DNA from: Candidatus Moraniibacteriota bacterium
Lineage (GTDB): Bacteria; Patescibacteriota; Minisyncoccia; Moranbacterales; UBA1568
Length of the DNA: 60,142 bases
Reading direction: 5' to 3'
Assembly: GCA_963778555.1 (NCBI GenBank)
Contig: CAVZUR010000001.1
Span: 1-60,142 of the forward strand
This document shows positions 2-18,920 of this stretch, piece after piece (position 1 is the first letter of the stretch; each line of letters begins with the position of its first letter). The notes beneath the pieces are model-generated. The model searched no databases and was not told the DNA's origin. It worked only from the letters and a program-made list of their open reading frames with translations. Position numbers and translations under genes: made by a program.

Positions 2-1828
2 GCGACGGGGATTACGTCCGCCACCGGCGACATCACCGCGACGGCGGGTAACATCGTCCTCGGCGCCACCACCCGCATCTCCAATGCCGGCGTCGGCACC
101 TTCATCACCGGTACGACCATCGGCTCCCAGACTTTCACCACCAACAACATCGCGGACTCGGGTGCCTTGACCATCAAGTCAGCAACGACCAATGCCCTCA
201 CTCTCGACTCTGGCACCACCGGGACCGTCAATCTCGGCACCGGGACCTCCGGCAAGACGATCAACATCGGCACCGACAACACTACGCTTGACACCATCAA
301 TATCGGCTCGGCTCTCGATGATGTCGCCATCACCGGCGACCAGTGGAGCGTCACCAACGCGGGCGTCCTGACGGTGGTGTCGTGCTCAGGCTGCGGTGGG
401 GGCGGGACGACATGGAATTCGATCGGCGCACCGACCGGCGCACTCTCGCTCTCTTTTGATGCAACAGAAACCTCCGCCTTCGCGTTCAATGGCTTCACAA
501 CGGAGACAGGCTTTGCTCTTTCAGCGGATGCCGGGATTACGTCAGGAGAAATCATGGACCTCACCGTCTCGGCCGCCTCAGGCTTTACGGGAAATGTTCT
601 CGATCTCAATCTTTCGGACGCCACGGGTGCGGCCTCCAATACAGGGACTCTTCTCTCGCTCACCAATGCCGGTACGGCCAATGCGAACACTTCCCTCCTC
701 ATCCAGCACAATGCCACGGGTACGAACAATCTGGCTTTCCGGGTGAATGATGTGGCGAGCGATACGACGCCGTTCGTGATCGATGGGGCGGGCAATGTCG
801 GGATCGGGACGGCGGCGCCGGCCAATATGCTGGATATCTTTGGGACTACCAATACGCTCCGTTTCTCCTATGATGTTTCCAATTTTGTCACTCTGGCCTC
901 AGATAGCGCTGGTAACCTGGTCGTAAACAGTTCGAGCGCTTCACAAAATATTGTGCTGATTGGAGATGGATCTGCGACCGATTCCTCCGTGCAGTTCGAT
1001 GGCAATGTCAATGACTACTATGTCGGTCAAGATGACACCGATGATTTTTTCCATATCGGCGTCGGCGCTGTCGTCGGGACCACGGCCGCCATCACTGTCG
1101 ATAGTAGCCGTAACGTGGGTATCGGCGATACAACCCCAACTGAACTCCTGACCGTCTTAGGGACGACCACTACGGGCACGGTTGCATCCATCACGGATGC
1201 CGCCGTTATGACCACCACGGGCAATCTCCTCACCCTCTCGGCTGCCGCTGCCACTACCGCGACCGGACTCCAGACTATCACTGCCGCCGCCCTCACCACT
1301 GGCTATGCCATGGATATCAATGTCAACGGTGCGACCTCGCTGACTTCCGGTGGCGCGATCAATATCGACGGACCGACCGGAGCGGCTGCCCAAGCCGCGG
1401 GCTCGCTCCTCCTCATCTCGACCACCGGCGCCGTGACCGGTACCGACGGTTCCGGCAACTCCCTCCAAGTGAACTCGGCCACCGCCACGGGTACCGTCGC
1501 TTCGATCAGTAGCTCGGGGACGATGACGACGACCGGCGACTTGCTCACCCTCTCGGCTGCCGCTGCCACTACCGCGACCGGGACTCCAGACTATCACCGC
1601 TGCCGCCCTCACTACCGGCTATGCTATGGACATCAATGTCAACGGTGCGACCTCGCTGACTTCCGGTGGTGCCATCAATATCGACGGACCGACCGGTGCG
1701 GCTGCCCAAGCGGCCGGATCACTTCTGAAGATTTCGACCACGGGTGCCGTGACTGGTACGGACGGCAGTGGGAACTCCTTCCAGATCTCTACGGCCACCG
1801 CCACGGGTACCGTCGCTTCGATCAGTAG
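2..1828 (+). CDS. Giant repeat-rich surface protein, fragment 1 (5' end lies outside the window)
   Basis: Frame is open from the window edge. Thr/Gly/Ala-rich repeats (TGTVNLGTGTSGKTINIG...). Frame is lost near 1578, where an extra G is present relative to the other 315-bp repeat copies. Confidence 0.8.
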   Translation, partial: ATGITSATGDITATAGNIVLGATTRISNAGVGTFITGTTIGSQTFTTNNIADSGALTIKSATTNALTLDSGTTGTVNLGTGTSGKTINIGTDNTTLDTINIGSALDDVAITGDQWSVTNAGVLTVVSCSGCGGGGTTWNSIGAPTGALSLSFDATETSAFAFNGFTTETGFALSADAGITSGEIMDLTVSAASGFTGNVLDLNLSDATGAASNTGTLLSLTNAGTANANTSLLIQHNATGTNNLAFRVNDVASDTTPFVIDGAGNVGIGTAAPANMLDIFGTTNTLRFSYDVSNFVTLASDSAGNLVVNSSSASQNIVLIGDGSATDSSVQFDGNVNDYYVGQDDTDDFFHIGVGAVVGTTAAITVDSSRNVGIGDTTPTELLTVLGTTTTGTVASITDAAVMTTTGNLLTLSAAAATTATGLQTITAAALTTGYAMDINVNGATSLTSGGAINIDGPTGAAAQAAGSLLLISTTGAVTGTDGSGNSLQVNSATATGTVASISSSGTMTTTGDLLTLSAAAATTATGTPDYHRCRPHYRLCYGHQCQRCDLADFRWCHQYRRTDRCGCPSGRITSEDFDHGCRDWYGRQWELLPDLYGHRHGYRRFDQ

Positions 1829-2510
1829 CTCGGGGACGATGACCACGACCGGCGACTTGCTCACCCTCTCGGCTGCCGCTGCGACGACCGCGACCGGACT
1901 CCAGACTATCACCGCTGCCGCCCTCACTACCGGCTATGCTATGGATATCAATGTCAACGGTGCGACCTCGCTGACTTCCGGTGGCGCGATCAATATCGAC
2001 GGACCGACCGGGGCGGCTGCACAAGCGGCCGGATCACTTCTGAAGATTTCGACCACGGGCGCGGTGACTGGTACTGACGGCAGTGGTAACTCCTTCCAGA
2101 TCTCTACGGCCACCGCCACGGGTACCGTCGCTTCGATCAGTAGCTCGGGGACGATGACCACGACCGGCGACTTGCTCACCCTCTCGGCTGCCGCTGCGAC
2201 GACCGCGACCGGAATGCAGACTATCACCGCTGCCGCCCTCACCACCGGCTATGCCATGGACATCAATGTCAACGGTGCGACCTCGCTGACTTCCGGTGGT
2301 GCGATCAACATCGACGGACCGACCGGAGCGGCTGCCCAAGCCGCGGGCTCGCTCCTCCTCATCTCGACCACCGGCGCCGTGACCGGTACCGACGGTTCCG
2401 GCAACTCCCTCCAAGTGAACTCGGCCACCGCCACGGGTACCGTCGCTTCGATCAGTAGCTCGGGGACGATGACCACGACCGGTGACTTACTCACGCTGAC
2501 GGCCAATAAC
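1160..2510 (+). repeat. About 4.3 tandem copies of a 315-bp (105-aa) coding repeat
   Basis: The MDINVNGATSLTSGGAINIDGPTGAAAQAAGSLL unit starts at 1310, 1626, 1941 and 2256. Spacings are 316, 315 and 315 nt. Copies 1 and 4 are one subtype, copies 2 and 3 another. Confidence 0.95.
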
Positions 2511-4007
2511 GCGACCACTGCGACGGGACTCCTGACAATTGACGGCGGTAATACGATGACGACAGGATCCGCCTTGAGCATCACCGGTACGACCTATGTC
2601 CATGGCGCGGAGACGGGGAGTTTGGCCAGCTTCGCGTTCTCTGACACGACCTCAGGTGCGGTCGCCAGCACGACCAATGGCATTCTCGTCACTCCGACCA
2701 TCAACATCACGGCTGGTGCGGCCACCAAAACGATCAATGGCGTCGCTATCAATCCGACGTTCACAGCGTGTACGACCGCGACCTGTAGTGTGAGTGGGCT
2801 CAGCGTCGGGAACGTGACAGATAGCGGCAACTTCAACAGTACAGCCATCGTCACGGGCACGGGCTGGGATACGGGTATCAATGTCGGCTCGGGCAATGTC
2901 ACCATCGCGGCGGGCCAGAGCTATACGGGCGCCGGAGCGGTGACGCTTTCTTCGACCACCAATACCCTGACGCTCGATTCGGGCAACAATATCCTCACTC
3001 TCGCCGCCGGGGATACGACGCTGCAGCGGACGGCAGCCGGCACCTATACGTTCGATCTGGTGGATGCGGCTGATACGACGCTCTTTCTCGCGAACTCGAC
3101 CGGTACGGCGGGAGTTGATCTCTTGCTCCGCATCGACAGCCTGACCAATGGCGGCGCTGGTTGCGATACCATCGACACGACGGCCGATGGGACGCTCATC
3201 TGCGGGACGGATGCCGGCGCGGGCGCATCGCCCTTTGGCGCGGCTGGCGGCGTCATCACCAAGACGACGGGTTCGGACTTTGTGTCGCTCCAGTACGGCG
3301 ACGCGGCCGATACCCAGCTCGTGATCGAAAATACGACGAGCGGCACCGTGCCGACCGTCGACGCGGCGCAGATTACCTTGACGGGCGGTACGACCGGTAT
3401 CGTCACGGCGGACGCCGATGCGCTGCAGATCGCCTGGGAAGCCGGGCATATGACTGCTGGCGGCAGCATCGCCGGCATCAATCTGGCCCTCACGACTGTT
3501 GCGGCCAGCACTACTTCGGCGGATATCTTCAACGGGCTCAATATCAGCAATATTACAGGGACGACGGCGACGGAGAACGCCGTCAATCTCGGCACCGGCT
3601 GGGATACGCTCTTCGCTGGCACCACGGCCGGGACGAGCCTCTTCAACTTCACGAACTTCGACGTGACTACGGGTGGGGATCTCGACCTGACGGGGACGAT
3701 TACCGCTGGTTCATCGAATACGGTGTTGACGCTTTCTACGGGTTTGATCGACGCGGATGCGCTCACCCTTACTGCCGCCGCGGATGCTGGCACAGGCACC
3801 TCGTCGGGTTCGGGACTCATCGCAAGGAGCGATGGCATCGGGCTTTTGCAGGGCTGTACGGACGGGCAAGTACTGGCCTGGGAGGAGACGACCGATACCT
3901 GGGACTGTACGACCGCTGGCGGTGGCGGCGACGCCGGGCTATGGCGTGGAAGCCGTGAACGTCTTCACGGGCAATGGCACCTGGACCAAACAGTCCTATG
4001 TGAATAA
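1626..4007 (+). CDS. Giant surface protein, fragment 2 (continues fragment 1 after a +1 frame change)
   Basis: Same repeat protein read in the next frame, followed by Thr/Gly/Ala-rich beta-strand-like sequence. Ends ...CTDGQVLAWEETTDTWDCTTAGGGG. Confidence 0.8.
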   Translation: MDINVNGATSLTSGGAINIDGPTGAAAQAAGSLLKISTTGAVTGTDGSGNSFQISTATATGTVASISSSGTMTTTGDLLTLSAAAATTATGLQTITAAALTTGYAMDINVNGATSLTSGGAINIDGPTGAAAQAAGSLLKISTTGAVTGTDGSGNSFQISTATATGTVASISSSGTMTTTGDLLTLSAAAATTATGMQTITAAALTTGYAMDINVNGATSLTSGGAINIDGPTGAAAQAAGSLLLISTTGAVTGTDGSGNSLQVNSATATGTVASISSSGTMTTTGDLLTLTANNATTATGLLTIDGGNTMTTGSALSITGTTYVHGAETGSLASFAFSDTTSGAVASTTNGILVTPTINITAGAATKTINGVAINPTFTACTTATCSVSGLSVGNVTDSGNFNSTAIVTGTGWDTGINVGSGNVTIAAGQSYTGAGAVTLSSTTNTLTLDSGNNILTLAAGDTTLQRTAAGTYTFDLVDAADTTLFLANSTGTAGVDLLLRIDSLTNGGAGCDTIDTTADGTLICGTDAGAGASPFGAAGGVITKTTGSDFVSLQYGDAADTQLVIENTTSGTVPTVDAAQITLTGGTTGIVTADADALQIAWEAGHMTAGGSIAGINLALTTVAASTTSADIFNGLNISNITGTTATENAVNLGTGWDTLFAGTTAGTSLFNFTNFDVTTGGDLDLTGTITAGSSNTVLTLSTGLIDADALTLTAAADAGTGTSSGSGLIARSDGIGLLQGCTDGQVLAWEETTDTWDCTTAGGGGDAGLWRGSRERLHGQWHLDQTVLCE

Positions 4008-5481
4008 TGTCTATGTCGAAGTCTGGGGCGCGGGTGGTGGCGGACTTCTTGGCAATGCGAACAACTCGATGGGCGGCGGCGGCGGAGGCGGCTATAGCGC
4101 CGGCATCACGACCGTCGCGGGCAATGTGAGCGTCGTGGTCGGCGCGGGTGGCGGCAACAACGCGAACGGCTCGGCCAGTACCTTTACGGGCGGTGCGACG
4201 CTCACGGGGAACGGTGGAACACGACCGACGACCGTTACCGGCGGCGCGGGCGGCACGGGCGCGAACGGAACCATCAACCTTCCCGGCCAGGCCGGTGGCA
4301 ACGGTGTTGCTCAGGATGGCGCAAAAAGCGGTTTTGGCGGCGATAGTCCGATGGGCGGCGGCGGCGGACAGGGCGCCGGCGGCGCGAATGCGTCTGGCGC
4401 GAACTCGGCGACCGTACCGATGAATGGCGGCAACGGACAAGTCCCGGGCGGCGGTGGTGGTGGTGGTGCGGAAAACAACGGTACGGCCGGGACCGGCGCC
4501 GCGGGACTGGTCATCGTCTGGGCGCTGTCCGGGACGAATGGCTCCGACTTCGCGGAAGTCTATGAGACGAAGCCCGGTGTCGAGCCCGGCGACGTGGTGG
4601 CGATGAGCGCGGACTCCATGGAGTATGACTCGGAATGGGGACTGCAGAATATCGCCATTTTGGAAAAGGCCAAGCCCGACGGCCGCGTGGTCGGCGTGGT
4701 GTCGACGGCCGCGGCGGTGGTCATGGGGCGGACAATAAGTGAAACCGCCGAAAATCCGCAGCCCATCGCCCTGGCGGGCCGCACTCCGGTCAAGGTGTCG
4801 CTCGAAAACGGGCCGATCAAAACCGGGGATCTGCTTGGGCCGTCGTCCATCCCGGGTGTCGCCGCCAAAAACGAGAAAGCGGGCATGGTCATCGGCGCGG
4901 CGCTGGAGGACTATGATCCGCCGCAAGATGGCGGCATCGGCAGAGTGATGATATTCGTCCAGACGGAGTACTCGAGCGGGGCGCGCACGAATCGGCTCTT
5001 GGAGCGCGCCGGCTTCGACCCGGACAATATCCCGCCGGAACTCGACATCGGGCGCCTCATGCTGGCGCAGGCGCTGGTCGAGAAACGCGACATCACGACC
5101 GAGACGCCCTTGTCGGAAGTCTTCACTGACCGCGTCGTCGCTGGATCTCGAGATGATTTCGCCGCGCGTCATCACGGACACGCTGGTGGCGAGCGCTATC
5201 GAGCCGGTGGACCGGGACGTGAAGCTGCGGCTCGAAGCCGACGGCCGATTCACCATCGAGCGCGCGGGCGCGGGGACCTTGTCGGCGACTTTTGGCGGCG
5301 AACCGCCGGAGGGCGGCGGGACGGAAGTGCTGAGTATCGATGCCGATGGCAACGCGACCTTCGCCGGAGTCGTCACAGCCAAGACGCTCCGGGCGGAAAG
5401 CATCGAAGGGCTCGCGTTCATAGAGACCGATATCCGCAATACCCAGAGCGGACTAGAGACCAATGCCGCCGAAGTGAATGA
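3757..5481 (+). CDS. Giant surface protein, fragment 3: glycine-rich (tail-fibre-like) domain
   Basis: True coding probably starts near 3930. Motifs VYVEVWGAGGGG, GGGGGGGYSAG and VVVGAGGG, then DFAEVYETKPGVEPGDVVAMS...PIALAGRTPVKV. Confidence 0.7.
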   Translation: MRSPLLPPRMLAQAPRRVRDSSQGAMASGFCRAVRTGKYWPGRRRPIPGTVRPLAVAATPGYGVEAVNVFTGNGTWTKQSYVNNVYVEVWGAGGGGLLGNANNSMGGGGGGGYSAGITTVAGNVSVVVGAGGGNNANGSASTFTGGATLTGNGGTRPTTVTGGAGGTGANGTINLPGQAGGNGVAQDGAKSGFGGDSPMGGGGGQGAGGANASGANSATVPMNGGNGQVPGGGGGGGAENNGTAGTGAAGLVIVWALSGTNGSDFAEVYETKPGVEPGDVVAMSADSMEYDSEWGLQNIAILEKAKPDGRVVGVVSTAAAVVMGRTISETAENPQPIALAGRTPVKVSLENGPIKTGDLLGPSSIPGVAAKNEKAGMVIGAALEDYDPPQDGGIGRVMIFVQTEYSSGARTNRLLERAGFDPDNIPPELDIGRLMLAQALVEKRDITTETPLSEVFTDRVVAGSRDDFAARHHGHAGGERYRAGGPGREAAARSRRPIHHRARGRGDLVGDFWRRTAGGRRDGSAEYRCRWQRDLRRSRHSQDAPGGKHRRARVHRDRYPQYPERTRDQCRRSE

Positions 5482-6250: not shown

Positions 6251-6277
6251 AAAAACCCTCTGAAAAGGAGGGTTTTT
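6251..6277 (+). terminator. Intrinsic terminator hairpin after the giant gene
   Basis: AAAAACCCTC / GAGGGTTTTT 10-bp stem (6251-6260 / 6268-6277) with a 7-nt loop and A/U-tract arms. Confidence 0.8.
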
Positions 6278-6302
6278 GTGAGTCTCAAGATACAAGTCAC
6301 GA

Positions 6303-6674
6303 CCCTTTCTTTTGGCAGCGAAAGAAAGGGGAAAAAGAAAACTGCCGCCCTCGTTTTCAGCTCGGAAAGTTTCGCAATTCACTCCGGCCATTGTATCGCG
6401 AGAGACTGATACAATGGTGATCCTCCATGAATTGAAAACTTTGACCTCGCTTTTCACTGGGGCGGGTACTGGATTCGAGAAACACCCATTGCGGAAGGCG
6501 AAGCCATTGGTCTAGGGCTGGAGGAAAGAGGTTTCGTAAGTCACTCGTTATGAAACCGCCGGAGGCCATAGCCAGCAATGGCATGAGCCGCGAGCACGGG
6601 TGCGCCTTTCCCCGCCCGTACCGAACGGTACGTTCGGGCGGGCTTTGGTTCATTTCTTTGGGCGGGCAAAGAAA
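6303..6674 (+). ncRNA. Unclassified structured RNA-like element, copy A
   Basis: Homologous to 16501-16873 on the - strand, with compensatory changes in at least 5 helices and covarying complementary loops. Terminal hairpins at 6303-6330 and 6653-6674. G.U pairs indicate + sense. Confidence 0.7.
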
Positions 6675-6838
6675 CGAACGAAGAGTTTTGTCGAAAAAAG
6701 AAAGTGGAGAGAATTTTTTGGCACCAAAACCCGCTTGTCGGCAAACAGGGAAATGAAGAAGCTATCTATTTGCTGCAAAAAGAAAGTGATAAAGAGGCTC
6801 TCCTGTGTGATAGGATAGAGACATTCTGCTGAAAACCC

Positions 6839-7630
6839 ATGAAGAAGCATTTCCCGCGCCCCACCCAGGAGGATCGGTCGCTCATTTTACGCAGGCATAC
6901 CCCGGTCCAGTGGCTGGTTTTCGGACTCCTCCTGGCTTTCTATGGTGTGATCCTCTGGCATCAGATCAAGCTGCCGGCGGCCGATGATCTCGGCCGGCAT
7001 ATCATGAACGGCAAACTGGTGCTCCAGGGGGAGTTCCGAGTGCTGGATTCGAACCTGTATTCGTACACCGAGCCGGACGCTTTTTTCGCCAACCATCACT
7101 GGCTGTTCGGCGTCATCGCCTATCTCCTCCATGCGACTATCGGCTTTGGCGGCATTGTGATCTTTAAAGTGCTCCTTCTCCTCTTCGCCTTTGCCCTGCT
7201 CTTTTTCATCGCGCTGAAACGGGCCGATTTCTGGGTCGTAGCGGTCTTTTCCATACCCACTATTCTCATCCTCATGGAGCGGACCTCGTTCCGTCCGGAG
7301 ATCTTCAGCTATCTCTTCGTCGTGATCTATCTGTATTTTCTGCACGCGGCGGTCGAACGGCCCGAGAGCAAACAGCTCTATTGGCTCGTGCCGCTCCAGA
7401 TCCTGTGGGTCAATATCCACATCTTTTTCGTCATCGGCGTGGTACTGGCCGCCGGCTTTCTTGCCGAAGCGATCATCCGGAATTATCGCGAGTTCTGGCG
7501 AAGCCTCCTGGTGAAGCGGCTAGCCGTCCTCGTCCTCTTCTTGGCTATGCGAGCGTCATCAATCCGCAGGGTATTCACGGTGCGCTCCTCTCATTCCCGC
7601 TCAATATCAAAGGCGAGTCGCCTATATTAA
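6839..7630 (+). CDS. Polytopic membrane protein with C-terminal TPR, fragment 1
   Basis: Multiple hydrophobic helices. Frame is lost near 7535. Confidence 0.7.
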   Translation: MKKHFPRPTQEDRSLILRRHTPVQWLVFGLLLAFYGVILWHQIKLPAADDLGRHIMNGKLVLQGEFRVLDSNLYSYTEPDAFFANHHWLFGVIAYLLHATIGFGGIVIFKVLLLLFAFALLFFIALKRADFWVVAVFSIPTILILMERTSFRPEIFSYLFVVIYLYFLHAAVERPESKQLYWLVPLQILWVNIHIFFVIGVVLAAGFLAEAIIRNYREFWRSLLVKRLAVLVLFLAMRASSIRRVFTVRSSHSRSISKASRLY

Positions 7631-7962
7631 TCGCTGAAGACGTGACGGTGCCGGAATATCTCCAAGGGACGTCCCTTTGGTCGGATGTGTCGATCGCAAT
7701 CTTCGTTCCATTGGCGGCGCTCTTGGCCATCAGTTTTTTGTTCCATCCTAGGAAAGCGTCGCTCTTCTATGCGGCCGCGAGCGCGGCGACGGCACTCGTC
7801 GCGTATTCGCATATCCGCGGGCTGGCGCTGTTCGGTTTGATATTCTTGCCGGCGATCTCAGCCAATGTCGCTCCTGTGTATGAGAAAATCCAAAAGCTTT
7901 CGTCAGGCGGAAACCGACGAATTCGGATATGCCATCGAACGTTCGCTCGTCGAGGCTGCTGA
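7381..7962 (+). CDS. Same membrane protein, fragment 2
   Basis: Continues as ...LLGYASVINPQGIHGALLSFPLNI... with further TM helices. True coding starts near 7535. Confidence 0.6.
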   Translation: MARAAPDPVGQYPHLFRHRRGTGRRLSCRSDHPELSRVLAKPPGEAASRPRPLLGYASVINPQGIHGALLSFPLNIKGESPILIAEDVTVPEYLQGTSLWSDVSIAIFVPLAALLAISFLFHPRKASLFYAAASAATALVAYSHIRGLALFGLIFLPAISANVAPVYEKIQKLSSGGNRRIRICHRTFARRGC

Positions 7963-7977
7963 TAGTGCGTTCTCCTG

Positions 7978-8172
7978 ATGTTTCTCTTTTTCAGTAACGC
8001 GATCGGCATCACACAGTTCCGGGAATACGGCATCGGTTTGGACCGTTGGGGCGACGCGGCCGGGACTTTCTTCAAAGCGCAAGGTTTCCACGGCCCTCTG
8101 TTCAATGATACCGATGTGGGGAGTTATCTGATCTATGCCCTGTATCCGGGGACGAGAGGTCTTTGCGGATAA
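7978..8172 (+). CDS. Same membrane protein, fragment 3
   Basis: GITQFREYGIGLDRWGDAAGTFFKAQGFHGPLFNDTDVGSYLIYALYP, which runs on into fragment 4. Confidence 0.5.
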   Translation: MFLFFSNAIGITQFREYGIGLDRWGDAAGTFFKAQGFHGPLFNDTDVGSYLIYALYPGTRGLCG

Positions 8173-8875
8173 CCGTTTCGGCGATGCCTATAGCCCGGCG
8201 TTCCTCCGCGATGTCTACCTCCCGGCGATCGCGGATGAGGCGAAATGGCAGGAAACGAACGCGCGATACGGATTTGAATCCATCTTTTTCTATCAGTACA
8301 ACGCTGTGACCGGTGCGCGCTCTTTTCTCTCCCGACGGATGGCGGATCCGGCATGGGCGCTCGTGTACGCCGATATCTACAATCTCATCTTCATCCGTGC
8401 GACACCCGAAAACGAAGCGAAAATACGGCAATTCCAGATCACGCCGGACAATGCCGCTCTGAAACTCCGTCACTTGCTCCAGTCGGACAGCGTCGCGGAC
8501 CAGGTGGCGGGAGCGGATATCTTGTATCTCCTGGGGCGGGGAGATCTGGCCATGCAGGCATATATAGATGTCGTCACGCGTCACCCGGAGGAGGACAGTG
8601 TTTGGATGGTGATGGCGCAGATCGAGGCGCGGAACAATACCCCCGCGAGCTCGGCCCTGTCGATGATGTATCTGGAAAAATCCCTGGCGGAGGGGAGGAA
8701 GACTGCGGAAGTCTATTCGTTCCTCGGGCTGGCGTATCTGCGGCTCGAACAGCTGGAAAAAGGCCGGGCGATGCTGGAAAAGGCGCTCGAAATCAATCCC
8801 GATCGCGTCGACGCAAGGAGTTTTTTGGATCAGCTCGATGAGCGCCTCAAGCAAGAACAGAAGAATTCTCCATAA
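8135..8875 (+). CDS. Same membrane protein, fragment 4 (periplasmic-type domain plus TPR repeats)
   Basis: REVFADNRFGDAYSPAFLRDVYLP..., then TPR-like LGLAYLRLEQLEKGRAMLEKALEINPD. Confidence 0.7.
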   Translation: MPCIRGREVFADNRFGDAYSPAFLRDVYLPAIADEAKWQETNARYGFESIFFYQYNAVTGARSFLSRRMADPAWALVYADIYNLIFIRATPENEAKIRQFQITPDNAALKLRHLLQSDSVADQVAGADILYLLGRGDLAMQAYIDVVTRHPEEDSVWMVMAQIEARNNTPASSALSMMYLEKSLAEGRKTAEVYSFLGLAYLRLEQLEKGRAMLEKALEINPDRVDARSFLDQLDERLKQEQKNSP

Positions 8876-8886
8876 TCTCTCTCTTC

Positions 8887-9180
8887 ATGCGCATGTCACA
8901 GACGTCGACCCGATTGAAACTCGCCCTCATTCTCGTCAGCTTTCTCGGGCTCTTTCTCGAGCTGGCCCTCATCCGCTGGCTGCCGGCCAATATTTTGTCG
9001 TTGGCGTATTTCTCCAACATCGTCCTCATCGCTTCCTTTCTCGGACTCGGCCTCGGGTTCATGCTAGCGCCGAGAAAAAGAGGATCTGTTCAAATATTTC
9101 CCGATCGTCCTTTTGGGCGTTTCCATTGCCATCATCGGCTTTCGCCAGATCGAAACGATCGTTCCAAATCTCAGCAATGA
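8887..9180 (+). CDS. Membrane-embedded spermidine synthase-like protein, fragment 1
   Basis: N-terminal TM helices. Frame changes around 9070-9110. Confidence 0.6.
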   Translation: MRMSQTSTRLKLALILVSFLGLFLELALIRWLPANILSLAYFSNIVLIASFLGLGLGFMLAPRKRGSVQIFPDRPFGRFHCHHRLSPDRNDRSKSQQ

Positions 9181-10993
9181 ACTCCTCTGGAGCCGGTATA
9201 CCGAAAATCAATTAGTGTCCTTTAATCTCCATCTCGGATTGCTCCCGACGCTCGTCGCCGTCTTCGCGCTCACGAGCCTGCCCTTCATTCTCATCGGGCA
9301 GAAAATGGCTCGGTTGATGCGGCAATTTCCGCCGCTCACGGCGTATGGCCTCGATATCCTCGGTGCGCTCATGGGTATCGGCGCCTTTAGTCTCCTGTCG
9401 TTCGCCAGCGGCGCTCTCGGTTCACCACTGGCCTGGTTTCTGGTGTCGGGCAGCCTCAGCTTGTGGCTCATCCGAGAGCATCAGCAGTTCCTGCTCGTGG
9501 GGGCGGTCTGTGTCGTCGCGGCGGTCATTATCATATACGCCGTTTCCCGGAATGAGATCTGGTCGCCGTATTATAGTGTCAAAGTTGCTGATGCTGCGGC
9601 TGATCATTCGATTCGGCTCTACGTGAACAATTTCTTTTTCCAGAAAGCCGTCGATTTCCGTTCGGATTCTGAAGCTAGAAAAAAATACGAATTTCCCTAT
9701 CTGTTGAAGTCCCCACAGAGCGTGCTCATCCTCGGGGCGGGGACGGGGAACGACGTGGCGATGGCAGGGCTGCGCGGAGTGCCCGACATCGATGCGGTGG
9801 AGCTCGATCCGGTCATCGCCGACATCGGCCGGCAGCGGCATCCGAACCGTCCCTATCAGAATCCCAATGTCCATCTCTTCATCGACGACGCGCGGTCGTT
9901 CCTGAAGAAGAGCGACAAGCAATATGACATGATCGTCCTCGGGACGCTCGATTCGCACGCTTTGTTGTCGGCACGGTCGACCGTGCGGCTCGATAATTTC
10001 GTCTACACAACTGAGGCCCTCGAGAGCATCCAGGAACACCTGAACCCGGACGGCATCGTGGTCCTCATGTTTTCGGTACCGGAACCGTGGCTGAGGGACA
10101 AAATAATCAAGAGCGTCCAACGAGTCTTTCCTGAGCCGGAACCGACCATCCAGATCGCGAAAAACGCCTATCTCTTCAACTTGATGATACTCGCCGGTCC
10201 GGGACTGACCGACATCCGGCGGCAGTATCCGGTAGAGATCGCGCCGACAGAGCCGATTCCGGAGAGCGTCTTCAGCACCCGCAATCTGTCGACCGATGAT
10301 TGGCCGTATCTGTATCTGCGCGAACACGCGATCCCTCGCTATTATCTCGAGGCCATCGGCCTCCTCTTGGCCCTGGCCCTGTATGCCATCGTCTTTCTCT
10401 ACCGAAAGAACATCATCGCCCTGCCCGATTGGAGCGGCTTGAATTTTTTCTGTCTCGGGGCGGCGTTCCTCTTGCTCGAAACGAAAAGCATCACGACGCT
10501 CTCGCTCCTCTATGGCTCGACCTGGTTCGTCAACGCATTCGTCTTCGGCGGCATCCTCACGATGGTGCTCCTGGCGAACATTGTCGTCACCCGGGTACCA
10601 ATCCGGCGGATCGAGACGGTCTATCTTCTCCTGGGGCTGTCTTTGGCGCTGAATTACTTCCTGCCCGTCTCGATGTTCCTCGGCCTGGAGTTCTGGCTGC
10701 GTTCCGGACTGTCGGCCCTCGTCGTGGCGCTCCCCATCTTTTTCGCCTCCATCATCTTTTCCACCCATTTCCGGTCAGTCACGAGCCTCTCTGTCCTGTA
10801 CGGACTCAACCTGATGGGCGCGGTCGTGGGCGGTTTCCTTGAATACAGCTCGATGCTGTTCGGCCTGAGCGCCCTCTATATCCTGGCCGGCATACTGTAC
10901 GCCCTCTCGTACTATGCCTTCACTCAAACGTCGCAGAGTAAAACGAGCGATGGCAAGCCAATCGATATCCCAGCGGCACATGAATCCCTATGA
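9113..10993 (+). CDS. Spermidine synthase-like (class I SAM-fold) domain flanked by TM segments, fragment 2
   Basis: VLILGAGTGNDVAMAG...AVELDPVIADIGR...NVHLFIDDARSFLKKSDKQYDMIVLG, with TM helices on both sides. Confidence 0.8.
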   Translation: MGVSIAIIGFRQIETIVPNLSNELLWSRYTENQLVSFNLHLGLLPTLVAVFALTSLPFILIGQKMARLMRQFPPLTAYGLDILGALMGIGAFSLLSFASGALGSPLAWFLVSGSLSLWLIREHQQFLLVGAVCVVAAVIIIYAVSRNEIWSPYYSVKVADAAADHSIRLYVNNFFFQKAVDFRSDSEARKKYEFPYLLKSPQSVLILGAGTGNDVAMAGLRGVPDIDAVELDPVIADIGRQRHPNRPYQNPNVHLFIDDARSFLKKSDKQYDMIVLGTLDSHALLSARSTVRLDNFVYTTEALESIQEHLNPDGIVVLMFSVPEPWLRDKIIKSVQRVFPEPEPTIQIAKNAYLFNLMILAGPGLTDIRRQYPVEIAPTEPIPESVFSTRNLSTDDWPYLYLREHAIPRYYLEAIGLLLALALYAIVFLYRKNIIALPDWSGLNFFCLGAAFLLLETKSITTLSLLYGSTWFVNAFVFGGILTMVLLANIVVTRVPIRRIETVYLLLGLSLALNYFLPVSMFLGLEFWLRSGLSALVVALPIFFASIIFSTHFRSVTSLSVLYGLNLMGAVVGGFLEYSSMLFGLSALYILAGILYALSYYAFTQTSQSKTSDGKPIDIPAAHESL

Positions 10994-11700
10994 AAAAACT
11001 CTCCATCCTCATCCCGGCGTACAATGAAGAGAAGACGATTCTGGAGATTTTGAAACGTATCGATGCGGCCCCCCTTAGCATCGGGAAAGAGATTATCATC
11101 GTGGACGACGGCTCGACCGACGGGACGCGGTCCATGTCTCGCGACGCTTGACCCCGATCGCTACCGGATCATCTTGAAGGAGAAGAACGGAGGCAAGGGA
11201 TCATGCCTCAAGGCGGGGATTCAAGCGGCGACCGGGGACATCGTCATTTTTCAGGACGCGGACTTGGAGTATGATCCGGCCGATTACCAAGCGATGATAC
11301 TGCCAATTCTAGACGGTCGGACCGAGGCGGTCTTGGGGGTGAGGGTGGGGAGCGGTCGAGAAATGATGAGCCGGAAGACATTTTACTATTGGGTGAGTTG
11401 GCTGGGCGGGGAACTCATCACCGGGACGACCAATCTGCTCTATTCGAATCACGCGATCGAGTATGAGGGTTGCTACAAGGCATTCACGAAGCAGGCTTTG
11501 GCTTCGATCACCATCACCGCTCGCATCTGAGGTTTGAAATAGACAATGAGATCGGTGTGCAAACTCCTCAAAAAAGGCAAACCGGACCATCGATGTTCCC
11601 ATCCGCTATACCCCGCGCAGCTATGAAGCAGGCAAGCATATCCGCTGGACTGACGGCCTCAAGATCCTCTGGACATCATCAAATATCGTTTTGTCGACTA
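10990..11700 (+). pseudogene. GT2 glycosyltransferase (polyprenol-phosphate sugar transferase-like), several frame disruptions
   Basis: MKKLSILIPAYNEEKTI...IIVDDGSTDGT, then ...GDIVIFQDADLEYDP..., then IDVPIRYTPRSYEAGKHIRWTDGLKILW, read in three different frames. The start overlaps the upstream stop (ATGA). Confidence 0.75.
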
Positions 11701-12126
11701 TGAAAAGGCGCCCTCCTCTTTATTATCACGGAAACCAAAAATGAAGGTGCGGTAGAGGTAAAAACTCTCGAGGGCGATGATGCCCGCCGCGAGCAGTTGC
11801 GCGAAGAGGTAGTGCAGATCCAGTAAGCGGACGAAGAGGTACATGAAACCCGTATTGAGGGCGGTGTTGGCGATGGCGATGGCGATATAGAGGATGAATT
11901 GCACCGGAGCGCGGTCGGTCGCGCGGTCTTGGAAGGTCCAGTATTTCTGGAGGAAGAAGCTGACGATGATGGCGAAAGAGAAAGCGAGAATGGATGCCGC
12001 GAGGTACCACCAGCCGAAAATATCCGTGAAGAGGTAGAGCAGGAGGAGGTCGACGCCGAGGGCTATGCCGCCGGATACGGCATACCGCAGCAGTCGGGTG
12101 AAGTTTTTCGGATCGGGAAAATCCAT
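11698..12126 (-). CDS. GtrA-family membrane protein
   Basis: About 140 aa with 4 TM helices. LRYAVSGGIALGVDLLLLYLF...QKYWTF is typical of GtrA. Confidence 0.8.
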   Translation of the reverse strand: MDFPDPKNFTRLLRYAVSGGIALGVDLLLLYLFTDIFGWWYLAASILAFSFAIIVSFFLQKYWTFQDRATDRAPVQFILYIAIAIANTALNTGFMYLFVRLLDLHYLFAQLLAAGIIALESFYLYRTFIFGFRDNKEEGAFS

Positions 12127-13049
12127 ATCGGGCAGTATACCTCAGTTTTTTTGGTGATGGTTTCCGAGATGCGGATGAGCCAATCCGTGATGCGGTAGCC
12201 GAATGTCGCGTCGGCCAGTGGCGGTTCATCGTTTTGAACGCAGCGGATGAAATGCTTCAATTGGTTTTCTAGTGGCTCGCGGGCGATGATAGGCGGGTAG
12301 ACGAGGCGCCCCTGTCTTTCGACGGCCAGCCGGTCCGTTGTTTTCGTCTCGTCGAGCGCGGCGGTTCCTTGTTCTCCCACGAGCGTCATCGTTCTCACTT
12401 TTTCCTTTCCGGACCAGGCGGCGCTAATTGAGAGGAGCGGACCGCGATCGAATCGGATGGCGACATGGAATGCATCCCTCTGTAGTACTCCCGTTGCCCG
12501 AATGAGTTCCGTCGGCTGAAAGAAGTGTTGAAAGACAGACAGCGCGTGCGGGGCGATATCAGAGAAGCAGTCCGTATCTTCTCGTTCGGGACTGAGAAAA
12601 TGCTCCACTCGGAATTCTTGCAATGGACCGAATGATCCCTGCTCCCACTCTTTTTTCATGTAGCGGATGTGGTCATTGTGGAGGTATTGGAATCCGACCA
12701 TGAGAATACGCCCGCTCTTTTCAGCTCGCGCTTTCAGATCTGCCGCTTCCTCGAGCGAGGCGACCAGCGGCTTTTCGACTAGGACATGCTTGCCGTGTTC
12801 CAAAGCCGTCCGGACAATCGAGTAATGAGTCGCAAAGGGCGTCGCGACCACGACGCAGTCAATTTCGGGATCGGCGAGGACGCTTGTGACGTCTGATGTC
12901 CAGCGTACAGTCGGAGGCAGAGGCTCGGCCTGCTCAAGGTGTGGGGAGCGGGTGACAACAGTCTTCAATCTGATCTTGGTGGTCTTTGAAAGAAGACGGA
13001 GATGATGTCGGCCGAATGTTCCAGCTCCGATGAGGGCGAAGTGCAGCAT
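12063..13049 (-). CDS. Gfo/Idh/MocA-family NAD(P)-dependent sugar oxidoreductase
   Basis: N-terminal Rossmann motif IGAGTFGRHH, then EKPLVASLEEAADL. Confidence 0.85.
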   Translation of the reverse strand: MLHFALIGAGTFGRHHLRLLSKTTKIRLKTVVTRSPHLEQAEPLPPTVRWTSDVTSVLADPEIDCVVVATPFATHYSIVRTALEHGKHVLVEKPLVASLEEAADLKARAEKSGRILMVGFQYLHNDHIRYMKKEWEQGSFGPLQEFRVEHFLSPEREDTDCFSDIAPHALSVFQHFFQPTELIRATGVLQRDAFHVAIRFDRGPLLSISAAWSGKEKVRTMTLVGEQGTAALDETKTTDRLAVERQGRLVYPPIIAREPLENQLKHFIRCVQNDEPPLADATFGYRITDWLIRISETITKKTEVYCPIWIFPIRKTSPDCCGMPYPAA

Positions 13050-13067
13050 GAACGTGGTTCAGATGAA

Positions 13068-14138
13068 CTATGCGGGCCGCTCGCCTTTGAGCTGGTCCTG
13101 GTACCAGGCGAGGGTTTTTGCCAGGCCGACCTGGAGCTCGACGGTGGGCAAAAACCCCAGCTCATTCTTCGCCTTCGTCAGGTCCGGACACCGCCGGTTC
13201 GGCTCGCCCGCTGGGTAGGATTCGGGATAATCGATGTTCTGGAGCGGAATCGGTTCCGCGAAGAGTCGGCTGATGATCTGGGTGAGGGTGGCGATACTGA
13301 TCTCTTCATTATTGGAACCGATATTGTACGTCTCACCCGCTCTGCCTCGGAGCAGCACTTTGAGGAAACCTTGCGTCGCATCACTGATGTAACAGAACGT
13401 CCGGGTCTGTTCCCCCTGGTTGTAGACCAACAGGGGATTGCCGCGAATCCCGCGGATGAGATGGGTGGAAATCACGCGGTAATCGTCGATGCGCATGCCG
13501 GGGCCGTAGATATTGAATGGCCGCACGATTTTCACGGGCACGCCATAGAGCTGATGATAGGTGCTGCACAAGGTTTCACCGAGCCGCTTTGATTCGTCGT
13601 AACAGGCCCGGGGGCCATTGGTCGAGACATTGCCTGAGTAGGTTTCGGGGGTCGGAATCTGATCGGGATCCGGGTCGCCGTAGATTTCGCTCGAGCTGAA
13701 ATAGAGGAATCCCTGTACGTTTTTTCGCCGGGCGAGCTCCAAGAGGTTCTTGGTGCCGCTGGTTGCGACCTCGATCGTCTCGAGGGGCAGTTTGCGGTAG
13801 TGCTGGGGCGAGGCGAGTCCCGCGGCATGAATGATATAGTCAACGTCCATATCCGGCAGGGGGGCGCAGACATCTTGCTCAATGAGCCGGAAGTTCGGAT
13901 TGTTTTCTGTTCCGAACAAGGCGTTATGTTTGGAGCCGGTGATGAAGTTGTCGATGACGACGACCGTGCAGGGCTTCGCGAAGCACTTTTCATTGAGCGT
14001 GAGGAGGACAGTGACGAGGTAACTGCCCAAAAATCCGGCGCCACCGGAGATGAGAATCGTCTTGCCTTCAAGCAAGGGTCGCTCGTCAGTGACGGACTCA
14101 ATGGTCTCCGTAATGTCTGGGCGGATGAGAGGGTGCAT
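13068..14138 (-). CDS. NAD-dependent epimerase/dehydratase (UDP-glucuronate decarboxylase-like SDR)
   Basis: GGAGFLGSYL, YDESKR (YxxxK) and NIYGP. Start placed at MHPLIRPD, just after the upstream stop. Confidence 0.85.
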   Translation of the reverse strand: MHPLIRPDITETIESVTDERPLLEGKTILISGGAGFLGSYLVTVLLTLNEKCFAKPCTVVVIDNFITGSKHNALFGTENNPNFRLIEQDVCAPLPDMDVDYIIHAAGLASPQHYRKLPLETIEVATSGTKNLLELARRKNVQGFLYFSSSEIYGDPDPDQIPTPETYSGNVSTNGPRACYDESKRLGETLCSTYHQLYGVPVKIVRPFNIYGPGMRIDDYRVISTHLIRGIRGNPLLVYNQGEQTRTFCYISDATQGFLKVLLRGRAGETYNIGSNNEEISIATLTQIISRLFAEPIPLQNIDYPESYPAGEPNRRCPDLTKAKNELGFLPTVELQVGLAKTLAWYQDQLKGERPA

Positions 14139-14142
14139 AGGG

Positions 14143-15327
14143 CTATACTTCTCGGGGCGGAATGGGAATGAGATAGCGGTATCTATTATTTGTCTTTTTC
14201 CGGATATCGTCCAGGTATTCGTAGGCGAACACGACCAGGACATCCGGCTGGGGATCGCAGCGTTCCAAAAACTCTTTGGCCACGATGGGGATATGCGTGC
14301 CGGGACTGAAACGGCCCTGCTTCAAGGGACTGTCGTCGACGATGAATTCGATCAGGTCCGGACCGATCGCTCCGTAATTGCAGATGGTCGCGACGCGGGC
14401 CGGGGCGCTGTAGCCGGCGACTCGGAGACCGGCCGCTTGGTACTCGCGGAGCTTGTCGCGAAAGGCTTCGAGCGAGGCGCTGACCGTTTGGCTGAACGCC
14501 TCGAGGATCGGAAAGCTCAATTCCCGCTCTTCCCGCGAGAGAAAATCCGCGACGCGTTGGGAGGTCGCGTGCCCATCGGCCGCTTTGCGGGCCGTCACTC
14601 GAAGCGATCCGCCGTGCGGCTCGATCTCTTCGACATCGGCGATAAACATCCCGTGACTCTCAAAGAGCGTCTTGAGAGAAGTCAGCGAGTAATAGAATAT
14701 CCGGTCCAGGTAGAAGCGTTCGAATTGGATCTTTTGGAGGATATGACCGATGTATTCGACTTCGATGATGCAATCGCCGTCATCGGTGAGGAGCATCTTG
14801 GCCGCCTCGATGAAGGCGTGTGGGTCGGCGACATGGGTGAAGATGCTGCTGGCCACGATCACATCGGGTTGGCCGTACTGCCTCTTTATTTTTTCGGCGC
14901 ATTCGAGATCGAAAAACGAGATGAGTGTGGTGAGTCCGGCGTCGTTCGCGATTTTTCCAACATTGATCGAGGGATCGACGCCGATGGCCCGGACGCCGAG
15001 CGCCTGGAGCGGCCTAAGGAGGATGCCGTCATTGGATCCCACATCGACCACGAACCGGGCACCGGCCAATGTCTGAGCGAGCGCTTCGAAATGCCGCACC
15101 AGGCCGAGATTGACCGACGAGAGATAGTAGTAATCGACGAACATCCGTTCCCGCGACACGCTGGTTCCGAGCTGGACATTTTTGCATTGCGGGCAAAACA
15201 GTACCACGAGCGGGAAAAAGTCCTCGGTTTTGAATTCCGCTTCGGTCGGGTATTTATTGGCCAGCGGCTGCTGTCCGAGATCGAGGAACGGAATGAGTTG
15301 GCTTTGTCGGCAGACGGTGCATGGCAT
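14143..15327 (-). CDS. Sugar C-methyltransferase-like class I SAM methyltransferase with N-terminal zinc ribbon
   Basis: MPCTVCRQ...CPQC zinc ribbon, VVDVGSNDG SAM motif, and a C-terminal C-methyltransferase-type domain. Confidence 0.8.
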   Translation of the reverse strand: MPCTVCRQSQLIPFLDLGQQPLANKYPTEAEFKTEDFFPLVVLFCPQCKNVQLGTSVSRERMFVDYYYLSSVNLGLVRHFEALAQTLAGARFVVDVGSNDGILLRPLQALGVRAIGVDPSINVGKIANDAGLTTLISFFDLECAEKIKRQYGQPDVIVASSIFTHVADPHAFIEAAKMLLTDDGDCIIEVEYIGHILQKIQFERFYLDRIFYYSLTSLKTLFESHGMFIADVEEIEPHGGSLRVTARKAADGHATSQRVADFLSREERELSFPILEAFSQTVSASLEAFRDKLREYQAAGLRVAGYSAPARVATICNYGAIGPDLIEFIVDDSPLKQGRFSPGTHIPIVAKEFLERCDPQPDVLVVFAYEYLDDIRKKTNNRYRYLIPIPPREV

Positions 15328-15395
15328 AGAGAGTGGGGGATATTCAGCAGCGTTAAATTCCACGGGATCCTGACAGTATGATATAGCTTTACGGG

Positions 15396-16346: not shown

Positions 16347-16421
16347 CAGTCCTATTCTATCATGTGAGGCAGGGTCTGTTCTTTTCAATCGCGCCGAAGT
16401 TTCCGAGCCATCGGCACTATC

Positions 16422-16446
16422 AAAACCCTCTGAAGCAGAGGGTTCT
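16422..16446 (-). terminator. Terminator-like hairpin, homologous to 6251-6277
   Basis: AACCCTC / GAGGGTT stem. On the - strand it is followed by TTTTGA. Confidence 0.55.
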
Positions 16447-16500
16447 TTGATCTTTCTATTACGACCCTTTCTATTGGCAGCAAAGAGATATATTCTATCT

Positions 16501-16873
16501 ATTTCTTTGGGCGCCCAAAGAAATGAACGAAACCCGCCCGAACGTACCGTCCGGTACGGGCGGGGAAAAGCACACCCAGGCTTCCGGCTCATGCGGTCGC
16601 CAGCCACAACCTCTGGCGGTTTCCTCGCGGCAGACTGAGAAAACCTTTTTCCTCCAGGTGTGGGGCAACCGTTTCGCCTCCCGCAGTGGGTGTTTGTGAA
16701 CCCAAAATCCGCCCCAGTGAAAGGCGAGGCGAGCGTACCCGATTAGTAAAGGATCACCATTTTCTCAGTCTGCCGCGAGAAAATGGCCGGAATGAATAGT
16801 GGTACGCTCCGAGCCAAAAACGAGGGCGGCACGTTTCTTTCGTCTCTTTCTTTTGGTGCGAAAAGAAAGAGAC
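16501..16873 (-). ncRNA. Unclassified structured RNA-like element, copy B
   Basis: Reverse complement aligns to 6303-6674. The block 16533-16694 vs 6481-6642 has 38 substitutions in 162 nt and no gaps. Terminal hairpins at 16501-16524 and 16842-16873. Confidence 0.7.
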
Positions 16874-17009
16874 ACATAGTTTGCCGTAAAAATGAAAGTG
16901 GAAAATCTATTGGAAGCGGTAAGAAAGAGGTAAATAAGGTCTTGACCCTGGATCCTAGAGCCTTCCTCGTTGTCCTTTCTTACTCGATCCCCATGGTAAA
17001 CTGTCGTAT

Positions 17010-18008: not shown

Positions 18009-18063
18009 TGCTCAGCGCCTCTCATTTTTGTCGCCTGGCGAGGTTTGGTATACTGGAGGAACT

Positions 18064-18795: not shown

Positions 18796-18920
18796 TGAGC
18801 GCTGGAAAGATCGTGCCGCCCATAGCAGCCGGGCGGTTTTTCATTGAGTTATCCACTGAGGCGGTATACTCAGGACAACATTGCCCCGGTATTCTTTTCG
18901 GGGTAGGATAGCCAGACTTT

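Follow-up and report, generated by a model that had tools for sequence, protein, structure and literature searches.

A pseudo-palindromic, covarying non-coding element of Moraniibacteriota that lies in both orientations at one locus

What kind of sequence keeps an elaborate single-strand fold, in two divergent copies, in the small genome of a patescibacterium? We analysed a 60,142-nt stretch of contig CAVZUR010000001.1 from a Candidatus Moraniibacteriota bacterium (the window), in which an initial annotation had picked out two related segments, copy A on the forward strand and copy B on the reverse strand, and had read them as a large structured RNA. The question has some weight, as it is rare for a large structured non-coding element to covary to this extent; genomes of Patescibacteria (candidate phyla radiation, CPR) are small, and much non-essential DNA is not expected in them. 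The element keeps about 100 base pairs across 25–45% sequence divergence. We favour, with a probability of about 0.4, the interpretation that the copies are a non-autonomous mobile or invertible, recombination-active structured element of ~0.4 kb, resembling a miniature inverted-repeat transposable element (MITE).

Homology and single-strand fold of the two copies

The segments at 6303–6674 (+) and 16501–16873 (-) are confirmed to be real and homologous, far beyond chance. Their mean column identity in a pairwise alignment is 84%, and the ungapped block 6481–6642 versus 16533–16694 contains 38 substitutions over 162 nt, exactly the count and coordinates first given. The strings quoted from the sequence were also found in place, both those of helices (AAAGTTT/AAACTTT, CCATTGTATC/GATACAATGG, CCGCCC/GGGCGG and the GC hairpin 6611–6642) and those of loops (GCGAGAGACT/AGTCACTCGT in copy A, GCGGCAGACT/AGTCTGCCGC in copy B). 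Within the window a conserved 23-mer is confined to copies A and B, with none in 100 shuffles, and nhmmer E-values of copies are ~1e-100 or lower. The true element is larger than the ends noted at first, with a 5′ palindrome from 6304, a 3′ palindrome to 6679 and a remnant palindrome to ~6711. Using nhmmer, pattern scans and contig look-ups we found 12 more copies on related Moraniibacteriota contigs (Table 1); one metagenome scan contributed just two copies, and a scan of genomes with the 23-mer gave no matches. The family, built from nhmmer and hand-anchored alignments, comprises elements of ~350–460 nt with pairwise identities of 52% to 87% (A–B 76%, C–D 64%, A–J 87%); copies A and J, at 87%, nevertheless have different neighbours.

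RNAalifold and explicit pair counting are concordant in the architecture that they give: a 5′ palindromic hairpin, arm 1, a linker that is variable and has insertions of 40–60 nt in some copies, arm 2, an optional GC-rich hairpin and a 3′ palindromic hairpin. Arm 1 is closed by the CCGCCC/GGGCGG helix, followed by three stacked stems and then hairpin 1; arm 2 is longer and ends in hairpin 2. Over 10 copies, pairing in the 5′ hairpin with its pseudoknot and in arm 1 reaches 93.0% overall, and 23 of 46 pairs have double-sided changes; 0 of 500 shuffles were as good, and slid controls were 37–47% paired with 4–7 double-changed pairs. Arm 2 with the 3′ hairpin is 92.8% paired and has double-sided changes in 18 of 52 pairs (7 copies). 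In the most divergent copies (H, I, K and D) the lower stems of arm 2 cannot be aligned, yet a long hairpin with the conserved loop cap still forms in each. The covariation is dense, spanning at least eight helices and two pseudoknots, and the fold survives in paralogues of only 60–76% identity. Covariation of this kind means that the element must fold as a single strand, and the body is thus shown to be selected to fold into two long irregular hairpins. The conserved fold with compensatory changes that had been described from copies A and B is borne out, the 12 further copies keeping the same helices.

The individual helices differ in their support. Two of those proposed from copies A and B gain by the added copies: 6366–6372/6436–6442 lies inside the lower stems of domain 1 (helix 3), which are 89.5% paired with double changes in 12 of 21 pairs, and 6388–6397/6408–6417 corresponds to hairpin 1, where the additional sequences (10 copies) bring the double-changed pairs to 6 of 11. 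A small hairpin at 6565–6569/6578–6582 is not supported, being 76.5% paired with 176 of 500 shuffles as good; its 3′ strand pairs instead with 6503–6509 as part of a long-range helix of 17 bp (6503–6519/6564–6582) that has 11 covarying pairs. By eye, the closing helix of domain 1 is kept in A, B, F and I, shows a U-A double change in E and wobbles in H and D, and is poor in C and K. Double changes at the 5′ pseudoknot (CG to UA and GC to CG) occur in copies B, K and H, and the pairings seen are GGCAG/CUGCC, GCAC/GUGC, GUACC/GGUAC and GGUAG/CUAUC. The GC-rich hairpin is on the 3′ side in A, B, D and G, on the 5′ side and inverted in C, and absent from E, F, H, I and J. Its sequence, CCCTGCCCGAAGTGCTACATCGTTGCAGGCGGG, compared between L001:5760–5800 on the one hand and L001:7940–7975 and L050:4975–5010 on the other, is found at the 3′ ends of D and G and is reverse-complemented at the 5′ end of C; it behaves as a portable insert at the junction of strand and palindrome.

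Matches to the family hidden Markov model (HMM) are also obtained with the opposite strand of each copy, at E ~1e-20 to 1e-33, because the whole element is pseudo-dyad-symmetric. Copy B contains a 32-nt inverted repeat (88%), and the flanks of hairpins 1 and 2 are complementary (CUCCGGC/GCCGGAG and GAUCCUCC/GGAGGA), so that arm 2 has the appearance of an inverted arm 1. Two internal loops at the same positions in most copies, 6421–6428 GAUCCUCC in arm 1 (anti-Shine-Dalgarno-like) and 6520–6527 GGAGGAAA in arm 2 (Shine-Dalgarno-like), are mutually complementary; they stand among the conserved loops and internal loops together with UUGCGGRAGGCGA and GCAUGAGCCG.

This symmetry bears on the covarying loop-loop contact that had been proposed between the two large hairpins. 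Loops L1 (GCGRSRGACU) and L2 (AGUCYCUCGY) are conserved, and in each of the 11 copies with both loops 8–10 of the 10 positions are complementary, so that part of the proposal stands. The covariation is not established, as the seven outer positions do not vary, full compensation of the three central pairs is seen only in B, J and C, and L1 pairs with the L2 of other copies as well as with its own (permutation P=0.22). The contact had also been preferred to a simple duplication; that preference is weakened, since domain 2 itself looks like an inverted domain 1 and such an arm brings complementary loops for free. A kissing contact is possible on the strength of the complementarity. A search of the window for the loop motif as a guide to other sites found none, the motif being confined to the elements. 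Nor do G.U pairs identify the sense strand, as had been argued: over all counted helices there are 32 G.U and 26 A.C, which leaves no strand signal in the body and is expected if neither strand is privileged.

The element is non-coding. No ORF is conserved, every frame is stopped in some copies and there is no codon (3-nt) periodicity, which rules out a protein-coding element and with it the alternative, raised at the outset, of homologs that preserve an ORF. With Rfam 15 (4227 models) the whole window gave no hit at the gathering threshold, and at E≤10 the only matches around both copies were chance ones to miRNA, RNAI and leader models far under threshold. The initial annotation had found no match to known RNA families by eye, and this check agrees for either copy; the element is unclassified, Rfam 15 holding no model that matches it. 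ARAGORN reported no tRNA and no tmRNA, and a literature search by sequence and keywords found no description of the element.

Table 1. Positions of the two window copies, their parts and the further copies; coordinates are those of the window unless a contig is named
Feature	Position	Strand	Remarks
Copy A, whole element (5′ palindrome to 3′ palindrome)	6301..6685	+	nhmmer 6302-6685, E 1.4e-100; alignments A1-A6
5′ palindrome (CCTTTCTTTT-GGCAGC-GAAAGAAAGG), 13-6-13-like	6304..6329	+	arms invariant among copies, closing pairs covary; helix 1, 98.9% paired, 3 double-changed pairs
5′ pseudoknot: loop 6315-6318 (GCAG) with 6342-6345 (CTGC), A-rich strand 6332-6341 in between	6315..6345	+	helix 2, 95% paired
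Domain 1 long-range closing helix: 6346-6350 (CGCCC) with 6460-6464 (GGGCG)	6346..6464	+	read by eye from domain-1 sequences and alignment A5
Domain 1 lower stems: 6359-6361/6449-6451, 6364-6365/6445-6446, 6366-6373/6435-6442, 6375-6382/6427-6434	6359..6451	+	helix 3
Hairpin 1 (6387-6397/6408-6418) with conserved 10-nt loop L1 6398-6407 GCGAGAGACU	6387..6418	+	6/11 pairs double-changed; loop consensus GCGRSRGACU
Domain 2 long arm: 6483-6487/6598-6602, 6490-6492/6594-6596, 6497-6499/6587-6589, 6503-6519/6564-6582, 6523-6524/6559-6560	6483..6602	+	
Hairpin 2 (6530-6538/6549-6557) with conserved loop L2 6539-6548 AGUCACUCGU	6530..6557	+	loop 9/10 complementary to L1
Optional GC-rich hairpin	6611..6642	+	terminator-like when the U-rich strand comes next
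3′ end module: U-rich strand 6643-6648 and 13-6-13 palindrome 6648-6679 (GTTCATTTCTTTG-GGCGGG-CAAAGAAACGAAC)	6643..6679	+	homologous to the cross-phylum module
Degenerate outer palindrome (TTTTGTCGAAAAAAGAAAGTGG)	6686..6711	+	counterpart of the second 5′-type palindrome flanking the invertible body in other copies
Copy B, whole element	16493..16876	-	5′ palindrome 16846-16876; 3′ palindrome 16497-16528
Copy B internal parts	L1 16767-16776; L2 16627-16636; GC hairpin 16533-16564	-	
Degenerate outer palindrome beside copy B	16462..16488	.	collinear with L219 while body inverted
Intrinsic-terminator-like hairpin (AACCCTCTG...CAGAGGGTT and U run) downstream of copy B	16420..16447	-	
Copies C, D	L001		
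Copy E	L051		
Copies F, G	L050		
Copies H, I	L052		
Copy J	L065		
Copy K	L056		
Copy M	L219		
Copy N	L220		complete genome CP064975.1
Copy O	L225		

End palindromes, inversion and a module in other phyla

Each element is bounded by palindromes TTTCTTT-N8-AAAGAAA (13-6-13 counting the outer arms), which in the window and its relatives occur almost exclusively at element ends. At the 5′ end the order is hairpin, A-rich strand and a 4–5 nt stretch that pairs, with covariation, with the hairpin loop; the 3′ end mirrors it as loop partner, U-rich strand and hairpin, and the modules of the two ends are of mutually reverse-complement type, so that terminal inverted repeats are present. The A-rich and U-rich strands are mutually complementary, with one compensatory change in copy B by our own reading of the alignments. 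A U.A-U triple helix in the 3′ module was rejected: the terminal pair of the hairpin covaries (GC 30, CG 9, UA 7, AU 1) and directly abuts the U-rich strand, so there is no linker and the triplex and the full stem cannot coexist. In its place we favour a closing helix between the U-rich strand and the A-rich strand of the 5′ end. Half-palindromes, each with one TTTCTTT arm, and solitary 3′ modules adjoin or replace full elements at L002:5790–5916, L220:9400–9470 and L056:3771–3860 (upstream of copy K), and they look like footprints of deletion between repeated TTTCTTTG arms.

The history of the element can be followed best at one locus, where the gene order in Moraniibacteriota is giant surface protein, bla-like hydrolase, LytR_C protein, dnaG and rpoD, the same as at 17010–22681 of the window. 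The bla-like serine hydrolase beside the element assigns the window to Moraniibacteriota, with 71% amino acid identity to metagenome-assembled genomes (MAGs) of this group, and the element occupies the spacer that separates the bla-like gene from the giant gene, whose place is taken in the window by a bla paralogue. It is antisense to the bla-like gene in the window (copy B), L001, L050 and L225, and sense in L219 and L220; L002 retains only a remnant, and the same spacer (40–250 nt) in L221–L224 and L226–L230 has no element and no palindrome, that of L227 containing a terminator and a promoter only. When the window is compared with L219, whose bla-like protein is 88% identical, the flanks including both outer palindromes are collinear (83–85%), whereas the body is reversed (74–87%) with breakpoints at the inner feet of the palindromes. 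In a second case, L220 versus L001, collinearity extends over both the bla-like gene (72.5%) and the giant gene (68%), and the element including its 5′ palindrome is reversed at 78.9%; here the element is better conserved than the neighbouring coding DNA. Because L219, the closest relative of the window, carries the element the other way round, the data require at least two events of inversion or re-insertion, and the element has flipped repeatedly at a locus just upstream of the dnaG and rpoD genes. The two orientations are observed between genomes, not within one population. The palindrome spacers in L219 are not identical (GGCGGC versus GGTGCG), and the breakpoints differ between the two cases. 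Orthologues of the gene downstream of copy A are too distant to yield an empty site. A lineage-private RNA gene, as first pictured, is weakened as an explanation by an element that is pseudo-palindromic, has palindromes like those of recombination sites and has its body inverted between related genomes at one locus.

The ends of the element have a far wider distribution. We scanned one genome per species with the pattern TTCRTTTCTTT-N8-AAAGAAAYGAA and found at least 120 loci, often several per genome and often at contig ends; among the matches listed the hosts are Desulfobulbales, Desulfuromonadales, Bacteroidota, Bacillota, Kangiella, Mariprofundaceae, Fusobacteriota and others. The module is nearly identical in Desulfobacterota, Bacteroidota, Bacillota, Fusobacteriota, and Gamma- and Zetaproteobacteria, and in other phyla only the last ~60 positions of the family HMM match. 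In 50 non-redundant modules the bases before and after the hairpin covary (GC 30, CG 9, UA 7, GU 3, AU 1), as does the loop-closing pair, and one stem position is G.U in 45 of the 50. Pairing also joins the loop of the module to the 5 nt that immediately precede the U-rich repeat (covariation score 0.252 versus 0.084 shuffled; slid controls 0.04–0.09), and G.U pairs are present in this pseudoknot as well. The loci are intergenic, with unrelated neighbour genes in random orientation. A clear inverted module lies 330–410 nt upstream in about a dozen of the 84 loci examined, and the elements are then of the same size as those in the window. Copies inside one Bacillota MAG are 86–96% identical, and in Sphingobacteriaceae and Desulfurivibrionaceae the homology between genomes is confined to the element. 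Two further ideas about the module were rejected, namely that its ATG is a start codon and that it is of phage or plasmid origin, there being no viral matches and only three large (1–1.3 Mb) plasmid records.

The picture of a lineage-private RNA gene that the initial annotation implied is thereby changed in two respects, in that the end module belongs to a cross-phylum, multi-copy intergenic family and the body is inverted at one locus. Near-identity across phyla points to a widely shared protein partner or to a very constrained, so far unannotated RNA or single-stranded DNA (ssDNA) fold. We tentatively raise the possibility of an undescribed cross-phylum class of ~0.3–0.5-kb non-coding elements, in which an end module (UUUCUUUG repeat, 13-6-13 hairpin and loop-to-flank pairing) is joined to a single-strand fold and the whole is moved or inverted by trans-acting machinery. 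Such a class, if true, would add either a novel type of mobile element that depends on structure or a novel family of large bacterial RNAs with a shared 'end clamp'. Its partner protein, once identified, would reveal a new mechanism of mobility or inversion or a new RNA function, and knowledge of partner and module would give annotators a handle on many 'empty' intergenic regions. Repeated inversion, recombination-site-like palindromes and a cross-phylum module absent from Rfam make this element more interesting than a lineage-private sRNA.

Weighing the alternative explanations

A mobile or recombination-active element is suggested by its location in terminator-promoter gaps, by presence, absence and remnants among relatives, by its two orientations and inverted modules, by the lack of strand bias and by homology restricted to the element; terminal inverted repeats and a lack of coding capacity are features of MITEs. 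As for near-identical copies at unrelated loci, other phyla have them (86–96%, one MAG), and for this genome two copies, 76% identical, were found. Such an element would lodge between the terminator of an upstream gene and the promoter of the next, its parts being arranged as end module, long arm 1, linker, long arm 2 and end module in pseudo-dyad order. A recombinase or transposase encoded elsewhere would recognise the TTTCTTTG/CAAAGAAA repeats as duplexes, a helix of the A-rich with the U-rich strand would form a compact end clamp together with the two terminal hairpins, and the covarying fold would serve a single-stranded intermediate (ssDNA or an RNA copy) during movement or inversion. Several observations weigh against this interpretation. 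Neither the 60-kb window nor the neighbourhood of any copy contains a gene for a transposase or integrase, the sole exception being a Xer-like integrase 2.3 kb from the L225 copy, and the ends examined show no target-site duplication (TSD). Viral sequences (2.9 million contigs, and phage records) contain no instance of the module, and plasmids almost none. Ordinary MITEs decay; the copies within one genome are old (A–B 76%, C–D 64%) yet still fold, which points to selection on resident copies. Strong conservation is also seen in the unpaired and internal loops, as it is in functional RNAs, and the G.U pair of the module stem (45/50) and those of the pseudoknot look RNA-like. With unequal palindrome spacers, a strict tyrosine-recombinase switch today appears unlikely.

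Many of the same data would suit a stand-alone gene for a large, structured, trans-acting non-coding RNA (ncRNA) with its own promoter, its ends locked by two hairpin-pseudoknot modules and the A-rich/U-rich helix, the main rival, which we rate as somewhat less probable, and one compatible with, not exclusive of, a mobile element. Its complementary 10-nt loops would kiss within one molecule to compact it or between molecules to form oligomers, and the inversions would be incidental events at flanking palindromes. The covariation over at least 8 helices and two pseudoknots, the conserved loops and internal loops, the retention of the fold in paralogues only 60–76% identical and in both orientations to the neighbours, as for an autonomous unit, and conservation above that of a coding neighbour (78.9% versus 72.5%) are all as this explanation would have it, as are the lack of coding capacity, the conserved G.U in the module, the terminator-like hairpin after copy B and the GC hairpin with U run inside A and B. 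It is less easily reconciled with the G.U count in the body, which is not in excess over A.C (32 versus 26), with a dyad symmetry in which arm 2 is an inverted arm 1, odd for an RNA gene, with the non-significant L1:L2 covariation, and with the patchy occurrence among close relatives and the existence of remnants. No promoter-like site is placed to transcribe either copy: a scan for sigma-70-type promoters found none positioned to do so, the only match near B being a weak one downstream, before the bla paralogue. A '-10-like ATACA' upstream of the 5′ palindrome was discarded, as it is part of the divergent bla-like/dnaG promoters and is conserved in element-free genomes. The inversions themselves could also reflect a phase-variation switch (inverton), with a recombinase flipping the body between the palindromes and so altering expression of the giant surface protein or of the bla-like/LytR_C/dnaG/rpoD genes. 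The inverted body between collinear palindromes and flanks, the second case in L220 versus L001, the 13-6-13 layout shared with lox/FRT/dif-type sites and the cell-surface and envelope genes nearby are what would be expected of one, but we consider it improbable, since the spacers of the two palindromes and the breakpoints of the two cases differ, no recombinase gene is adjacent, and the downstream gene has a promoter of its own, kept also in element-free genomes, the element being located between this promoter and a terminator. A flip would in any case change little in a near-symmetric element, copies A, H, I and K lie in quite different contexts, and no inverton is known to require 100 covarying base pairs. 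That the element is a cis-acting RNA leader, riboswitch or attenuator is very unlikely and is largely refuted by gene contexts: copies A and B each face a downstream gene (6839–7630 and 16349–15396), but 8 of the first 11 copies have either a divergent gene nearest to the 5′ end or a convergent gene opposite the 3′ end, both orientations occur at one locus, copy B is separated from its downstream gene by a terminator and a promoter-like site, and the downstream genes are mutually unrelated. Explanations outside those considered retain a small chance.

Known systems and surrounding genes

Among described elements, the ERIC/IRU, Correia (NEMIS) and REPIN-type repeats come close, being non-coding, intergenic, multi-copy imperfect palindromes that are bounded by inverted repeats, lie in either orientation, maintain their structure, show homology over the element only and are patchy among relatives. 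The present element differs in being three to four times longer (350–460 nt), in having two independent multi-helix arms and two pseudoknots in place of one long hairpin, in resident copies that still fold at 60–76% identity, in an end module conserved across phyla rather than within one family, and in that no TSD and no partner transposase (RAYT/IS) was identified. The large ornate ncRNAs ROOL, GOLLD, OLE and raiA, like the element without known function, and the phi29 pRNA are also several hundred nt long with many covarying helices, and the ornate ncRNAs are sometimes multi-copy or on mobile DNA. ROOL, GOLLD, OLE and pRNA self-associate through intermolecular loop-loop pairing, and two mutually complementary apical loops would permit self-association of that type here. 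These RNAs are set apart from the element by its dyad symmetry, inverted end modules and documented DNA inversion, by a lack of G.U bias, by loop covariation that is unproven, and by the absence of any sequence or structure match in Rfam.

Recombination sites such as lox, FRT, dif and hix, and invertons, share with the element palindromes of two ~13-bp arms around a 6–8-bp spacer and a body found in both orientations between fixed flanks; in contrast to them it has no recombinase nearby and unequal spacers, and its palindrome loops also take part in a covarying single-strand pseudoknot that duplex sites do not need. A further likeness is to integron attC sites, IS200/IS605 ends and CTX phage attP, whose hairpins are recognised as folded single strands and in which, as in the body of the element, structure rather than sequence is conserved; the flanked cassettes, namely the bla-like/LytR_C pair (L001, L050) and the 10-kb glycan block between A and B, belong to the same likeness. 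The element is much larger than these, and its two ends are of opposite polarity, while IS200/IS605 ends share one polarity; no IntI, TnpA or TnpB and no R/L boxes or cleavage-site tetranucleotides were recognised. An IS200/IS605 PATE or TnpB omega-RNA was accordingly rejected (no TnpA/TnpB ORF beside any copy, ends of opposite polarity), as were an IS110 bridge or seek RNA (no recombinase ORF beside any copy or in the window) and a retron or DRT ncRNA (no reverse transcriptase downstream, where there are instead a 263-aa protein without Pfam match, the bla-like hydrolase and others). TIGR arrays consist of tandem 36-nt units with two alternating short repeats and 9-nt spacers beside a Nop-domain Tas gene (PMC12045711); there is no tandem array here, which excludes a TIGR-Tas system.

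The TwoAYGGAY RNA (RF01731) resembles the element in having two hairpins with conserved apical loops and a function that is unknown. The window copies do not match it (threshold 43 bits), their loops being GCGRSRGACU/AGUCYCUCGY and not AYGGAY. Rfam on 36 module-bearing loci gave nothing relevant except one TwoAYGGAY match (47.5 bits) at L141:2533–2658 in Kangiella taiwanensis, ~30 nt upstream of the 3′ module. The motif was not found at the 34 other module-bearing loci, including a second Kangiella locus, L140, which has two hairpins with roughly complementary loops (AUCCAU/GGGAUG) and no Rfam match. On the Ilyobacter polytropus replicon pILYOP01 (L186), which carries six module copies, one module lies in a 620-nt gene-free gap (223640–224259) where RefSeq locus tags skip RS10975; the skipped tag suggests an annotated pseudogene or RNA missing from the plasmid gene table.

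Within the window, near-identical terminator-like hairpins (AAAACCCTCTG...CAGAGGGTTTT) stand just outside the copies, at 6252–6280 upstream of A and at 16420–16447 downstream of B, and this hairpin is also found at the end of the upstream gene in L219 and L227. Two divergent class-A beta-lactamase-like serine hydrolase paralogues, 15396–16349 (-) and 17010–18008 (+), form an inverted repeat around copy B; in relatives only one gene of this type is present, with the giant gene before it. Between copies A and B, both of which point inwards, lies a 9.8-kb block (6700–16490) with genes for sugar modification and the envelope (GT2, GtrA, GFO/IDH oxidoreductase, epimerase/dehydratase, C-methyltransferase, spermine-synthase-like, TPR). 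Two copies likewise enclose the bla-like/LytR_C pair in L001 and L050, and one gene in L052. Four tandem 315-nt units, 73–95% identical, lie at 1208–2453 inside large ORFs (167–1828, 1626–4007), and the next large ORF (3757–5481) has a Gly_rich_2 domain; together the repeats and this ORF look like a giant repetitive surface protein. GC content is 59–66% in the giant-repeat region and 54–57% to the right of copy A.

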